A stretch of DNA of 64,000 nucleotides from Escherichia coli. Its GTDB lineage: Bacteria > Pseudomonadota > Gammaproteobacteria > Enterobacterales > Enterobacteriaceae. The position numbers and the translations under genes are program-made. The DNA lies in NCBI RefSeq assembly GCF_041886205.1, contig NZ_CP169029.1; one strand, written 5' to 3'. Under the pieces are notes generated by a model that worked only from the letters and a program-made list of their open reading frames with translations, had not been told where the DNA came from and searched no databases. Of this stretch, positions 3,233-46,090 are shown one piece after another (position 1 is the first letter of the stretch; every line of letters begins with the position of its first letter).

Positions 3233-3525
3233 GTTGTGTGACCTGTTGTTGATTACATCCGATTTTACCGCGTGGGCATGGATGGGGCAAACTCACTCAA
3301 TTTCTGGTTTAAAATGGATACCTGATCCTGAAAGTTTTCTGCCATCCACGATCCGTATACGCGATAAACCCTCTGATCATCAGAGCCCTCATTTGATACA
3401 CATCACCACGTCGGATGTTGTTACGACCGCAGACGCAACAGTAACGTTTGAATAATTTAATCTTTGTTGATGTTTTTATTCATATTCCGGGCTAGGGAAA
3501 TAATCAGGCGTAATTGTGTCACTGG

Positions 3526-36886: not shown

Positions 36887-39778
<2,892 letters not shown>

Positions 39779-39798: not shown

Positions 39799-40302
39799 AT
39801 GACCGGTATGACGAATGTAACAAAGCTGGCCAGCGAGCCGTCAGGCCAGGAATTTCTGGTATTTACCCTTGGTGATGAAGAGTACGGTATTGATATCCTG
39901 AAAGTGCAGGAGATCCGTGGCTACGATCAGGTAACACGGATTGCGAACACGCCAGCGTTTATCAAAGGCGTCACGAATCTGCGCGGCGTTATTGTGCCGA
40001 TTGTTGACTTGCGAATTAAGTTCAGCCAGGTGGATGTGGACTATAACGACAACACGGTAGTTATCGTCCTGAATCTCGGACAGCGGGTGGTCGGCATCGT
40101 GGTTGACGGCGTTTCAGACGTGCTTTCATTGACGGCGGAGCAAATTCGTCCGGCACCAGAGTTTGCCGTGACGCTTTCAACAGAATATCTCACTGGACTG
40201 GGCGCACTGGGCGACCGGATGTTGATTCTGGTGAACATCGAAAAACTGCTGAACAGCGAAGAGATGGCGCTGTTAGATAGCGCGGCGTCAGAAGTGGCGT
40301 AA
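39799..40302 (+). CDS. cheW: chemotaxis coupling protein CheW
   Basis: 167-aa ORF recognised as CheW. Confidence 0.95.
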
Positions 40303-40330
40303 TTCTCCCGATTTCCTCAATTGAAATGAA

Positions 40331-40358
40331 CCCGATGATCTGCGCATCGGGTTTTTTA
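40331..40358 (+). terminator. rho-independent terminator after cheW
   Basis: CCCGATG-ATCTGCG-CATCGGG hairpin followed by T6. Confidence 0.7.
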
Positions 40359-40388
40359 TTTCAATTTCGCGGCGGGTGGCATCAGCAA

Positions 40389-40415
40389 TAAAGTTTCCCC
40401 CCTTCTTGCCGATAA
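40389..40415 (+). promoter_or_regulatory. sigma28 (FliA) class 3 promoter of tar-tap-cheRBYZ
   Basis: Exact consensus TAAAGTTT-N11-GCCGATAA. Confidence 0.8.
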
Positions 40416-40446
40416 CGAGATCAACTTGTTTTCAGGAAGGTGCCTT

Positions 40447-42108
40447 ATGATTAACCGTATCCGCGTAGTCACGCTGTTGGTAATGGTGCTGGGGGTATTC
40501 GCACTGTTACAGCTTATTTCCGGCAGTCTGTTTTTTTCTTCCCTTCACCATAGCCAGAAGAGCTTTGTGGTTTCCAATCAATTGCGGGAACAGCAGGGCG
40601 AGCTGACGTCAACCTGGGATTTAATGCTGCAAACGCGCATTAACCTGAGTCGTTCAGCGGTGCGGATGATGATGGATTCCTCCAATCAACAAAGTAACGC
40701 CAAAGTTGAATTGCTCGATAGCGCCAGGAAAACATTGGCGCAGGCAGCGACGCATTATAAAAAATTCAAAAGCATGGCACCGTTACCTGAAATGGTCGCT
40801 ACCAGTCGTAATATTGATGAAAAATATAAAAACTATTACACAGCGTTAACTGAACTGATTGATTATCTTGATTATGGCAATACTGGAGCTTATTTCGCTC
40901 AGCCAACCCAGGGAATGCAAAATGCAATGGGCGAAGCGTTTGCTCAGTACGCCCTCAGCAGTGAAAAACTGTATCGCGATATCGTCACTGACAACGCAGA
41001 TGATTACCGATTTGCGCAGTGGCAACTGGCGATTATCGCGCTGGTGGTGGTATTGATTCTGCTGGTGGCGTGGTACGGCATTCGCCGTATGTTGCTTACT
41101 CCGCTGGCAAAAATTATTGCTCACATTCGCGAAATCGCCGGTGGTAACCTGGCGAATACCCTGACCATTGACGGGCGCAGTGAAATGGGCGACCTGGCGC
41201 AGAGCGTTTCACATATGCAACGCTCTTTGACTGACACCGTCACTCATGTGCGAGAAGGTTCAGATGCCATCTATGCCGGTACCCGTGAAATTGCGGCGGG
41301 CAACACCGATCTTTCCTCCCGTACTGAACAGCAGGCATCCGCGCTGGAAGAAACTGCCGCCAGCATGGAGCAGCTCACCGCGACAGTGAAGCAAAACGCC
41401 GATAACGCCCGCCAGGCCTCGCAACTGGCGCAAAGTGCCTCCGACACCGCCCAGCACGGCGGCAAAGTGGTGGATGGCGTAGTGAAAACGATGCATGAGA
41501 TCGCCGATAGTTCGAAGAAAATTGCCGACATTATCAGCGTTATCGACGGTATTGCCTTCCAGACTAATATCCTCGCGCTGAATGCCGCGGTTGAAGCCGC
41601 GCGTGCGGGTGAACAGGGCCGTGGTTTTGCCGTGGTGGCGGGTGAAGTGCGTAATCTTGCCAGTCGCAGCGCCCAGGCGGCAAAAGAGATCAAAGCCCTC
41701 ATTGAAGACTCCGTCTCACGCGTTGATACCGGTTCGGTGCTGGTCGAAAGCGCCGGGGAAACAATGAACAATATCGTCAATGCTGTCACTCGCGTGACTG
41801 ACATTATGGGCGAGATTGCATCGGCATCGGATGAACAGAGCCGTGGCATCGATCAAGTCGCATTGGCGGTTTCGGAAATGGATCGCGTCACGCAACAGAA
41901 CGCATCGCTGGTGCAGGAATCAGCTGCCGCCGCCGCTGCGCTGGAAGAACAGGCGAGTCGTTTAACGCAAGCGGTTTCCGCGTTCCGTCTGGCAGCCAGC
42001 CCACTCACCAATAAACCGCAAACACCATCCCGTCCTGCCAGTGAGCAACCACCGGCACAGCCACGACTGCGAATTGCTGAACAAGATCCAAACTGGGAAA
42101 CATTTTGA
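40447..42108 (+). CDS. tar: methyl-accepting chemotaxis protein II Tar
   Basis: ORF 40426-42108; start at 40447 ([16 protein letters not shown]...) giving 553 aa; C-terminal NWETF pentapeptide. Confidence 0.95.
41286..41925 (+). repeat. tar copy of the tar/tap paralogous signalling-domain repeat
   Basis: About 640 bp highly similar to 42988-43620 in tap, with long near-identical runs; source of the mirrored antisense ORFs. Confidence 0.85.
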
Positions 42109-42153
42109 CGAGTATTTACTAACGCGGTCATTGCCGCCTGATGGGGAGCGTTG

Positions 42154-43755
42154 ATGTTTAATCGTATTCGAATTTCGACCACGCTGTTTTTAATTTTGAT
42201 TCTCTGCGGGATCTTGCAGATTGGCAGTAACGGCATGTCTTTTTGGGCATTTCGCGACGATTTGCAACGACTGAATCAGGTCGAGCAGAGCAATCAGCAA
42301 CGTGCGGCATTAGCGCAAACTCGGGCGGTAATGTTACAGGCCAGTACCGCGCTGAACAAAGCGGGCACTCTGACGGCACTTAGCTATCCGGCGGATGACA
42401 TTAAAACGTTGATGACGACGGCGCGCGCCAGTCTGACGCAATCCACCACGCTGTTTAAAAGTTTTATGGCGATGACTGCGGGCAACGAGCACGTCAGGGG
42501 ATTGCAAAAAGAGACGGAGAAAAGTTTTGCCCGCTGGCACAACGATCTCGAACATCAGGCGACCTGGCTTGAAAGTAATCAACTTTCGGATTTCCTCACT
42601 GCGCCGGTGCAGGGATCACAGAATGCGTTTGACGTTAACTTTGAGGCCTGGCAGCTGGAGATCAACCATGTGCTGGAAGCCGCCAGTGCGCAAAGCCAGC
42701 GTAACTATCAGATTTCGGCACTGGTGTTTATCAGCATGATTATTGTTGCGGCGATCTACATCAGCAGTGCGCTGTGGTGGACGCGCAAGATGATTGTTCA
42801 ACCACTGGCCATTATCGGTAGCCATTTTGACAGCATTGCTGCGGGTAATCTGGCGCGTCCGATTGCGGTATATGGTCGTAATGAGATCACCGCCATTTTT
42901 GCCAGTCTGAAGACCATGCAGCAGGCTTTGCGTGGGACGGTAAGTGATGTGCGTAAGGGAAGCCAGGAGATGCACATTGGTATCGCGGAGATTGTCGCAG
43001 GCAATAACGATCTCTCAAGTCGTACCGAACAGCAGGCGGCATCGCTGGCACAAACGGCCGCCAGTATGGAGCAATTAACCGCCACGGTAGGGCAAAACGC
43101 CGATAACGCGCGCCAGGCGTCGGAACTGGCAAGAAATGCCGCGACAACGGCGCAGGCGGGCGGTGTTCAGGTCAGTACCATGACTCACACTATGCAGGAG
43201 ATCGCCACCAGCTCGCAAAAAATTGGCGACATTATCAGCGTTATCGACGGCATTGCTTTCCAGACCAATATTCTGGCCCTGAATGCGGCAGTGGAAGCGG
43301 CTCGCGCCGGAGAGCAGGGGCGTGGTTTTGCGGTAGTGGCAGGTGAAGTGCGCAATCTTGCCAGCCGTAGCGCGCAGGCAGCAAAAGAGATCAAAGGGCT
43401 GATCGAAGAGTCAGTCAATCGTGTCCAGCAGGGTTCGAAACTGGTGAATAACGCCGCCGCGACCATGACCGATATTGTCAGTTCGGTGACCCGCGTGAAC
43501 GACATTATGGGAGAAATTGCTTCGGCGTCTGAAGAACAACAGCGGGGGATTGAGCAGGTTGCACAGGCTGTCAGCCAGATGGATCAGGTGACTCAGCAGA
43601 ACGCCTCGCTGGTAGAAGAAGCGGCGGTGGCAACGGAACAACTGGCGAATCAGGCCGACCATCTTTCGTCGCGTGTGGCGGTATTTACCCTTGAAGAACA
43701 TGAAGTAGCACGACATGAGTCGGCGCAGTTACAAATTGCGCCAGTGGTATCCTGA
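42154..43755 (+). CDS. tap: methyl-accepting chemotaxis protein IV Tap
   Basis: 533-aa ORF (MFNRIRISTTLFLILILCG...); MCP signalling domain; lacks NWETF. Confidence 0.93.
   Translation: MFNRIRISTTLFLILILCGILQIGSNGMSFWAFRDDLQRLNQVEQSNQQRAALAQTRAVMLQASTALNKAGTLTALSYPADDIKTLMTTARASLTQSTTLFKSFMAMTAGNEHVRGLQKETEKSFARWHNDLEHQATWLESNQLSDFLTAPVQGSQNAFDVNFEAWQLEINHVLEAASAQSQRNYQISALVFISMIIVAAIYISSALWWTRKMIVQPLAIIGSHFDSIAAGNLARPIAVYGRNEITAIFASLKTMQQALRGTVSDVRKGSQEMHIGIAEIVAGNNDLSSRTEQQAASLAQTAASMEQLTATVGQNADNARQASELARNAATTAQAGGVQVSTMTHTMQEIATSSQKIGDIISVIDGIAFQTNILALNAAVEAARAGEQGRGFAVVAGEVRNLASRSAQAAKEIKGLIEESVNRVQQGSKLVNNAAATMTDIVSSVTRVNDIMGEIASASEEQQRGIEQVAQAVSQMDQVTQQNASLVEEAAVATEQLANQADHLSSRVAVFTLEEHEVARHESAQLQIAPVVS
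42988..43620 (+). repeat. tap copy of the tar/tap paralogous signalling-domain repeat
   Basis: See 41286-41925. Confidence 0.85.
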
Positions 43756-43773
43756 AGTGATTGAGAAGGCGCT

Positions 43774-44634
43774 ATGACTTCATCTCTACCCTGTGGGCAA
43801 ACGTCTTTATTGTTACAGATGACCGAGCGCCTGGCGCTTTCCGACGCGCATTTTCGGCGGATAAGTCAATTGATCTATCAACGAGCCGGGATCGTTCTGG
43901 CTGACCATAAACGCGACATGGTTTACAACCGACTGGTTCGTCGTTTGCGTTCGCTGGGACTGACGGATTTCGGTCATTATCTGAACTTGCTGGAATCTAA
44001 TCAGCACAGCGGTGAGTGGCAGGCGTTTATCAATTCGCTGACCACGAATCTGACGGCATTTTTCCGTGAGGCACACCATTTCCCTCTGCTCGCGGATCAC
44101 GCACGTCGCCGTTCTGGCGAGTATCGCGTATGGAGCGCGGCGGCTTCGACCGGCGAAGAGCCGTACAGCATTGCGATGACGCTGGCTGACACATTGGGCA
44201 CCGCGCCCGGACGCTGGAAAGTGTTTGCCAGTGATATCGACACCGAAGTGCTGGAAAAAGCCAGAAGCGGTATTTATCGCCATGAAGAGTTGAAAAACCT
44301 GACGCCGCAGCAACTGCAACGGTATTTCATGCGAGGGACGGGACCGCATGAAGGGCTGGTACGCGTGCGTCAGGAGCTGGCGAACTATGTTGATTTTGCC
44401 CCGCTGAATCTACTGGCGAAACAGTACACCGTGCCGGGGCCGTTTGATGCGATCTTCTGTCGTAACGTCATGATCTACTTCGATCAAAATACCCAGCAGG
44501 AGATTTTGCGCCGCTTTGTTCCGCTCCTTAAACCCGACGGATTGCTGTTTGCGGGTCACTCTGAAAACTTTAGCCACCTTGAGCGCCGCTTCACGCTGCG
44601 TGGTCAGACGGTGTATGCGCTAAGTAAGGATTAA
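43774..44634 (+). CDS. cheR: chemotaxis methyltransferase CheR
   Basis: 286-aa ORF recognised as CheR. Confidence 0.95.
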
Positions 44635-44636
44635 CG

Positions 44637-46090
<1,454 letters not shown>

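Follow-up and report, generated by a model that had tools for sequence, protein, structure and literature searches.

The best overall explanation of our observations, to which we give a probability of roughly 85%, is that tar and tap of Escherichia coli are old paralogues whose homology is held by constraint, and that an in-register deletion of 1,701 bp between them makes Tar-Tap hybrids. Hybrids with exactly this deletion are present in 3 of 5,426 complete E. coli genomes (0.055%).

In the window, the 64,000-nucleotide stretch of E. coli DNA that was analysed, the gene order is cheA-cheW-tar-tap-cheR-cheB. All coordinates are those of the window and lie on the plus strand unless the minus strand is named. 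The neighbours tar (40447-42108; aspartate/maltose chemoreceptor, MCP-II, 553 aa) and tap (42154-43755; dipeptide chemoreceptor, MCP-IV, 533 aa) are both on the plus strand. Both genes had been named correctly in the earlier note. Over its full length, Tar scores 1199.5 bits against NCBIfam NF011622 (curated equivalog cut-off 900) and Tap scores 1180.6 bits against NF007309 (cut-off 903). Both proteins contain TarH, HAMP and MCPsignal (Pfam PF02203, PF00672 and PF00015), each above its gathering score, and tar, tap, cheR and cheW are the RefSeq annotation names in a 100% identical genome. The two genes are old tandem paralogues of the E. coli operon tar-tap-cheR-cheB-cheY-cheZ. As for the C-termini of the translations, Tar ends in ...DPNWETF, with the NWETF pentapeptide encoded at 42091-42105, and Tap ends in ...IAPVVS, without this tail. 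NWETF is the tether of CheR and CheB, is found on Tar and Tsr only and is able to act in trans; the high-abundance receptor carries the pentapeptide and the low-abundance receptor does not (PMC4692393, PMC7390727).

The homeologous block shared by the two genes is located at 41287-41925 in tar and at 42988-43626 in tap; the tap copy lies 1,701 nt (567 codons) further downstream and keeps the reading register. The block encodes the methylation helices and hairpin tip of the signalling domain (Tar residues 281-493). Blastn aligns 41287-41912 of tar with 42988-43613 of tap at 74.4% identity (E 1.7e-112), and a repeat search reported two stretches, one of 300 nt with 77% identity and one of 185 nt with 74%, with a spacing of 1701 for both. 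Without gaps, 468 of the 640 positions of 41286-41925 match at offset 1701 (73.1%), and the neighbouring offsets tested, including the 1702 implied by the earlier note, give only 23-26%. The match is far beyond chance. The copies are direct repeats on the plus strand, with an offset of 3 x 567 and a codon alignment that is collinear without gaps. The 640-bp homology lies where it had been placed before, with an identity of 73-74% instead of the near identity then described.

In terms of exact matches, the longest runs measure 24, 18 and 16 nt and every other run is 11 nt or shorter, so the “long identical nucleotide runs” claimed before are not there. The 24-nt run pairs 41526-41549 in tar with 43227-43250 in tap, and the 18-nt run pairs 41391-41408 with 43092-43109. 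A codon-aware shuffling model gives a mean longest run of 18.7 nt, with a probability of about 0.10 of reaching 24 nt or more. The 24-nt run is about what this null predicts, and run length is not in excess. Both the identity (73%) and the longest run (24 nt) lie barely above the limits that had been set for abandoning the claim (identity below 70%, no run longer than 20 bp).

Natural hybrids were found by searching the 5,426 complete genomes for the fused locus with a composite probe. In the three positive genomes the probe anchors are 634 nt apart and exactly 1,701 bp are deleted, which bears out the earlier prediction of an approximately 1.7-kb deletion creating a tar-tap hybrid. The hybrid locus has one in-frame “tar” CDS of 1,608 nt (535 aa) between cheW and cheR. 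Its product joins the N-terminal part of Tar to the C-terminal part of Tap and ends in ...QLQIAPVVS; NWETF is missing from every hybrid. Diagnostic sites in the finished hybrids change cleanly from tar-type to tap-type, with 788-790 of 796 sites consistent. The switch point falls in the 24-nt run (41526-41549) in ET474 (China, frog) and PEC389 (Korea, pig), which have the same junction, and in the 18-nt run (41391-41408) in ETEC4088. The accessions are NZ_CP100954 for ET474, NZ_CM168012 for PEC389 and NZ_CP122629 for ETEC4088. Putative fused loci also come from the SRA runs SRR27314547, ERR10017064 and ERR3550700. Two further switch points within 41326-41363, at 41326-41336 (11 nt, L012) and 41351-41363 (L010/L011), come only from automated short-read draft (Logan) assemblies. 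Four in-register junction classes were seen in total, with differing flank backgrounds, which suggests at least four independent tar-tap deletion events if the two candidate draft-assembly junctions are counted. Local identity at some switch points is just 4, 8 or 11 nt, with the register still perfect.

Exact hybrid proteins are also present on 28 and 71 contigs of public assemblies. Protein records for the hybrids include WP_098723133.1 and WP_096259879.1. Isolates with hybrids come from pigs, a frog and other sources, and every hybrid is annotated “Tar”, because it still passes the Tar equivalog cut-off. Out-of-register Tar-Tap fusions were seen as well, in frame and at 2-aa microhomologies (P0017, P0018, P0027 and P0028). 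The reciprocal duplication (tar, tap'-'tar hybrid, tap) was found by composite probe in 0 of the 5,426 genomes.

The most common natural loss of tap, that of the B2 lineage, has a different mechanism, unconnected with the tar/tap repeat. It is present in 1,059 of the 5,426 complete genomes (~20%). The deletion of about 1,374 bp is wholly inside tap, leaving a 152-nt tap stub and tar with its NWETF intact. At its ends lies the short direct repeat GAATCAGG(T/C)CGA (8 nt exact, 11/12 overall), with the left copy at 42273-42284 and the right copy at 43647-43658. We considered this loss as the predicted tar-tap crossover and dropped the idea, because tar is intact and the breakpoints, at a short repeat, both lie within tap. 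Like the hybrids, it is a natural loss of Tap function at the tar/tap locus, but the B2 event took place within tap between short repeats and did not involve tar/tap homology. Loss of tap in phylogroup B2 or uropathogenic E. coli is already described, as summarized in PMC12623472 (Lane et al. 2006; Borziak et al. 2013).

For the hybrids, the proposed sequence of events starts with a misaligned sister chromosome or replication template, whose tap block would occasionally be paired with the tar block; exchange between the paired blocks would then remove exactly 1,701 bp. With direct repeats spaced by exactly 567 codons, such an exchange would keep the reading frame. The product carries the periplasmic sensor, transmembrane helices and HAMP of Tar joined to the signalling tip and C-terminus of Tap. 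The pathway may be RecA-dependent homeologous recombination or RecA-independent template switching. Flanking homeology probably guided pairing, because switch points with 4-11 nt of identity remain perfectly in register. The tar/tap block is a very poor RecA substrate, about 27% diverged and with runs of 24 nt at most, and the observed frequency is low. The missing reciprocal product agrees equally well with unequal sister exchange, with deletion by an intramolecular or slippage route and with counter-selection of a triplicated locus.

Could the database hybrids be assembly or sequencing artefacts, with contigs misjoined through the repeat? Two of the four junction classes being known solely from Logan assemblies would agree with this, but the other two stand in three finished chromosomes from three laboratories, with an identical junction in ET474 and PEC389, and the recurrence of exact hybrid proteins on many contigs also makes an artefact very improbable. 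An assembler whose k-mers exceed the 24-nt maximum run is not expected to bridge the tar/tap repeat. A different account of the same junctions is RecA-independent slippage or template switching at microhomologies, where the block would merely supply in-frame microhomologies and selectable functional products. We regard it as a possible but less probable origin. The switch points at 4, 8 and 11 nt agree with it, as do the out-of-register fusions, the 8-nt exact repeat at the B2 deletion and the lack of the reciprocal duplication among the complete genomes. Against it, the two events known from finished genomes switch within the block's two longest runs, and perfect register in all four in-register classes is unlikely from microhomology alone. 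Furthermore, heteroduplex formation followed by mismatch correction can shift the visible switch point off the initiating run.

As for the resemblance of the two genes, the implicit reading of the earlier note was a recent duplication, or an ongoing gene conversion homogenizing adjacent tar and tap. The genes are indeed adjacent and co-oriented, with an extended collinear match, but other data leave this reading almost no probability. Amino-acid identity in the block is 77.6%, and nucleotide identity at codon positions 1, 2 and 3 is 84, 86 and 49%. Fourfold sites are 37.5% identical, where 28% is expected from composition, and are thus close to saturation. The unlinked pair tar-tsr is closer (77.1%, 28-nt run) than the adjacent pair tar-tap (72.9%, 24-nt run), and the longest tar-tap run is within the codon-aware null. 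With codon positions, paralogue control and run-length null all against them, recent duplication and gene conversion were dropped. From the codon-position pattern, the near saturation of fourfold sites and the greater closeness of tar-tsr, we infer constraint at the protein level; the nucleotide similarity is, judging by these sequence comparisons, a passive result of the purifying selection that keeps the MCP signalling domain conserved. The 640-bp block encodes the cytoplasmic part needed by every chemoreceptor, for CheA/CheW docking and methylation. We also suspected a conversion tract in an exact run of 29 nt that tap shares with aer, and rejected it, the 41-codon hairpin tip being 73-84% identical in nucleotides across all five paralogues.

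The fusion of tar to tap is essentially known already. That the two genes are homologous in their C-terminal halves and tend to fuse has been textbook knowledge on E. coli chemotaxis since the 1980s. Slocum, Halden and Parkinson reportedly obtained spontaneous tar-tap fusions in K-12 in 1987, as deletions by recombination between homologous regions, and Weerasuriya, Schneider and Manson are said to have engineered Tar-Tap and Tap-Tar chimeras in 1998. The present hybrids resemble these K-12 hybrid transducers and chimeras in having the same genes, with the Tar N-terminus joined to the Tap C-terminus via the homologous C-terminal coding region. The K-12 hybrids, however, were laboratory isolates or constructs, whereas those reported here come from wild isolates and have mapped junctions and a Tar annotation. 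A full-text literature search for natural tar-tap fusions and for E. fergusonii chemoreceptors found nothing. Where “tar-tap” is mentioned in other papers that were found, it stands only for Δ(tar-tap)5201, a deletion allele made in the laboratory. The literature also notes that chimeras between closely related chemoreceptors can be functional, citing Slocum 1987 (J Bacteriol 169:2938, PMC212330) and Weerasuriya 1998 (J Bacteriol 180:914, PMC106972).

In terms of mechanism, the event is similar to classical homeologous direct-repeat deletion, with repeats 1.7 kb apart, precise loss of one unit and finished-genome switches in 18- and 24-nt runs. It differs from the classical substrates in the higher tar/tap divergence (27%) and in some switch points of only 4-11 nt. 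Such deletion between diverged direct repeats in E. coli, with its rules for minimal processing segments and its mismatch-repair barrier, is reportedly described by Shen and Huang (1986), Rayssiguier, Thaler and Radman (1989) and Bzymek and Lovett (2001). Separately, switch points of 4-11 nt are a poor fit to any pathway that simply needs long stretches of identity.

As for phenotype, a hybrid receptor is predicted to keep aspartate/maltose sensing and to lose dipeptide sensing. It would also be without the NWETF tether for CheR and CheB, and because of this loss its adaptation would depend on neighbouring Tsr. The Tar-Tap fusion may, quite speculatively, be a recurrent and possibly selected natural remodelling of the receptor set, with at least four origins and persistence in circulating lineages, one of them in China and Korea. 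If true, a single step removes dipeptide/pyrimidine sensing and leaves the abundant aspartate receptor without its NWETF tether. Since annotation pipelines label the hybrid as Tar, chemoreceptor surveys will wrongly count hybrid strains as Tar-positive strains that just lack tap, and the loss of NWETF will be overlooked. The normal “Tar” of Escherichia fergusonii appears to be a related fusion, consisting of Tar plus the last ~six Tap codons. Both this type of fusion and the hybrids are concealed by their label, “methyl-accepting chemotaxis protein II”. As first written, the repeat finding has little significance; in practice, primer design and recombineering at tar-tap have to reckon with ~74% identity and no perfect repeat.

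Lastly, the minus strand has an open reading frame of 192 aa inside tar (41271-41849) and one of 106 aa inside tap (43185-43505), which uses the same frame and is shortened by stops. Another minus-strand ORF in tap (42798-43085) belongs to the same low-stop antisense frame. The antisense translations from tar and tap are 72% identical, and two stops break the frame in tap. The “mirrored antisense ORFs” noted before do share a common antisense frame that homology explains, but the mirror image is interrupted in tap. As genes, these ORFs were dropped: they are a mechanical by-product, all lying in one antisense frame of conserved coding sequence in which stops are few.

Across 40300-43800, identity is 100% to strain wlxctx60 and at least 98% to thousands of further genomes, and the source is, judged from sequence, Escherichia coli. 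On the plus strand, the ORFs of cheA (37760-39778) and cheW (39799-40302) are followed by tar (40447-42108), tap (42154-43755) and the ORFs of cheR (43774-44634) and cheB (44637-45686). Both tar and tap match their NCBIfam equivalogs over the full length, with 1199 and 1180 bits against a cut-off of about 900. Their products share the TarH-HAMP-MCPsignal architecture; the NWETF pentapeptide forms the C-terminus of Tar and is missing from Tap.

The signalling-domain parts of the two genes are homologous and collinear. With blastn, tar 41287-41912 aligns to tap 42988-43613 at 74.4% identity (E = 1.7e-112), and the repeat search gives two matches spaced by 1701, one of 300 nt (77%) and one of 185 nt (74%). 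Ungapped at offset 1701, 41286-41925 is 73.1% identical, whereas the adjacent offsets tried reach only 23-26%. Exact runs extend to at most 24 nt (41526-41549), followed by 18 nt (41391-41408) and 16 nt, the rest being 11 nt or shorter. The earlier note had placed both segments correctly to within a few bases; its start coordinates implied a register of 1702, the true one being 1701. Its description of near-identical segments with long identical runs does not fit an identity of about 74% and runs of this size, and the data lie only just above the limits, about 70% identity and a run of about 20 bp, below which it had counted itself refuted. The homology is real, near-identity is not, and the observation is confirmed in part.

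The deletion product was searched for with a 600-nt composite probe, joining tar 40986-41285 to tap/cheR 43621-43920. Wild type has 2,335 nt between these anchors and a locus with the predicted deletion would have 634 nt, so that the search reports a joined place only for the deletion product. Such a place is found in 3 of 5,426 complete E. coli genomes, each time with 1,234 nt (600 + 634). All three loci carry cheW, then one 1,608-nt CDS annotated “tar”, then cheR. The deletion is exactly 1,701 bp, and the product of 535 aa ends in ...QLQIAPVVS, as in Tap. The proposal that recombination deletes about 1.7 kb and creates a tar-tap hybrid receptor is thus supported down to the exact product, and the event is rare.

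To map the switch points, each hybrid was scored at the 796 sites that distinguish tar from tap in the window. All change cleanly from tar-type to tap-type, with 788-790 of the 796 sites consistent. The crossover of ETEC4088 (pig, Belgium) falls in the 18-nt run (tar 41391-41408, tap 43092-43109). Those of ET474 (frog, China) and PEC389 (pig, Korea), which show no difference over 6.2 kb, fall in the 24-nt run (tar 41526-41549, tap 43227-43250). The same few off-type sites are seen in all hybrids, and for this reason probably reflect ordinary polymorphism of tap as compared with the window's allele. At seven tap positions (43110, 43133, 43191, 43251, 43469, 43521 and 43530) all hybrids examined agree with one another in their tap-derived part and the window has another base; at 43133 and 43530 this common allele agrees with tar. 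The tap allele of the window strain seems slightly unusual.

Exact copies of the two hybrid proteins of the three genomes are on 28 and 71 contigs of public assemblies, always under the name “methyl-accepting chemotaxis protein II”. They carry this label, a mis-annotation, because they clear the Tar equivalog cut-off of 900, with 961-1062 bits and alignments ending near position 523 of the 553-position profile. One hybrid, used as the query of a protein search, returned further 535-aa hybrids, with junctions at Tar residues 287-298, 302-315, 315-326 and 360-417; the DNA of two of these places the switch at 41326-41336 (11 nt) and 41351-41363. By the differences in their flanks, the hybrid loci represent at least four independent fusion events. 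Also returned were rare in-frame Tar-Tap fusions that are out of register and 656-771 aa long: P0017 (771 aa), P0018 (688 aa), P0027 (656 aa) and P0028 (680 aa). Their junctions lie at microhomologies of 1-2 residues, and each protein is on only 1-2 contigs; in one example, Tar 1-478 is joined to Tap ~237-533, duplicating part of the cytoplasmic domain.

The geometry of the substrate and the exact deletion products are read directly from the genomes; the pathway is inferred. Use of the two longest runs in the finished genomes fits a homeologous RecA-dependent exchange, and the classical minimal processing segment is 20-27 bp, near the size of the 18- and 24-nt runs. All these 535-aa hybrids switch in perfect register, even with just 4-11 nt of local identity, which argues that flanking homeology guided the pairing; heteroduplex resolution would then have placed the visible switch point. 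RecA-independent template switching, which we consider the less likely main route, fits the switch points with short identity and the out-of-register fusions. It also fits a negative result: a dedicated probe detected the reciprocal product (tar, tap'-'tar hybrid, tap) in 0 of the 5,426 genomes.

The hybrids retain the Tar sensor, transmembrane helices and HAMP domain and lose NWETF, while the methylation-site region is nearly identical between Tar and Tap. With these parts kept, they should still sense aspartate and maltose, and dipeptide taxis should be gone. NWETF tethers CheR and CheB, is present on Tar and Tsr only, and can act in trans within arrays (PMC4692393, PMC7390727). With the motif lost, the hybrid should depend on Tsr for its adaptation.

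The similarity itself is, by its substitution pattern, an outcome of purifying selection on the conserved MCP signalling domain. Aligned by codon, the block has 77.6% amino-acid identity, and identities of 84%, 86% and 49% at codon positions 1, 2 and 3. Fourfold-degenerate sites are 37.5% identical versus 28% expected from base composition, so synonymous sites are close to saturation. As paralogue controls we took tsr, trg and aer from K-12. Over the same 214 codons the unlinked tar-tsr pair (77.1%, longest run 28) exceeds the adjacent tar-tap pair (72.9%, longest run 24), and the hairpin tip (41 codons) has 73-84% nucleotide identity among all five paralogues. When third-position matches are shuffled among codons, the longest run averages 18.7 ± 4.3 nt, and 24 nt or more is reached with a probability of about 0.10. 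Neither the third positions, the closer tar-tsr pair nor this probability gives any sign of recent duplication or gene conversion between the neighbours. The tar-tap pair is special in geometry only, with direct orientation, a distance of 567 codons and the same frame.

About one fifth of genomes have no functional tap, with an identical junction in 1,059 of the 5,426 complete E. coli genomes. This deletion removes about 1,374 bp inside tap, between short direct repeats GAATCAGG(T/C)CGA at 42273-42284 and 43647-43658, whereas the hybrids lose 1,701 bp across the block. Being internal to tap, with Tar intact, it is not caused by tar/tap homology. The deletion is the known tap loss of B2/UPEC strains, which PMC12623472 describes, citing Lane 2006 and Borziak 2013; its breakpoints are now mapped. 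Carriers are B2-type, for example ST131, and the 152-nt tap stub (3355-3506 of database locus L001) bears the annotation 'Tar ligand binding domain-containing protein', marked as frameshifted. In the E. coli probe searches, about 40 of the 5,426 complete genomes had no tar/tap/cheR anchors, and a few records had 3-4 places, or had their matches on plasmids, at 3-5 places. These records point to deletion of the whole region, to duplication, or to che genes copied on plasmids.

The 1987 fusions of Slocum, Halden and Parkinson reportedly arose via recombination between homologous regions. For functional chimeras between closely related chemoreceptors, PMC2229510 cites both Slocum, Halden and Parkinson (1987), with spontaneous Tar-Tap hybrid transducers, and Weerasuriya et al. 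(1998), with engineered Tar-Tap and Tap-Tar chimeras. The idea of the earlier note is therefore correct yet established, tar-tap fusion by recombination being already known. The literature searched contains no description of such fusions in natural isolates; Borziak 2013, the likeliest place, lay outside that search.

The Escherichia fergusonii 'Tar' (519-521 aa; proteins P0072 and P0073; 4001-5560 of contig L009) is Tar-like to about 41996 (residue 517), then has the last ~6 codons of Tap (TAPVVS) and the tap-cheR spacer. The E. fergusonii-type contig L009 has neither tap nor NWETF; its order is tar'-cheR-cheB-cheY-cheZ, with a fimbrial usher operon upstream in place of cheW. This looks like a species-level tar-tap fusion, with its junction outside the homologous block. 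Another database protein, P0051 (536 aa; 15 member sequences; on a 2.9-kb NCBI contig), resembles Tar in its N-terminal part and Trg in its cytoplasmic domain and tail (...EPVSFATV); possible readings are a Tar-Trg chimera of unlinked genes, a misassembly or a laboratory construct. Finally, the divergent P0084 (130-1737 of locus L013, 535 aa, 14 member sequences, SRR11450272) shares about 71% identity with the E. coli hybrid, and its source is probably another enteric species. In the N-terminal part it is nearer Tar (65%) than Tap (29%) and in the C-terminal part nearer Tap (76% versus 65%), with the tail ...AVPVVS, a pattern that points to a fusion of this kind beyond E. coli.
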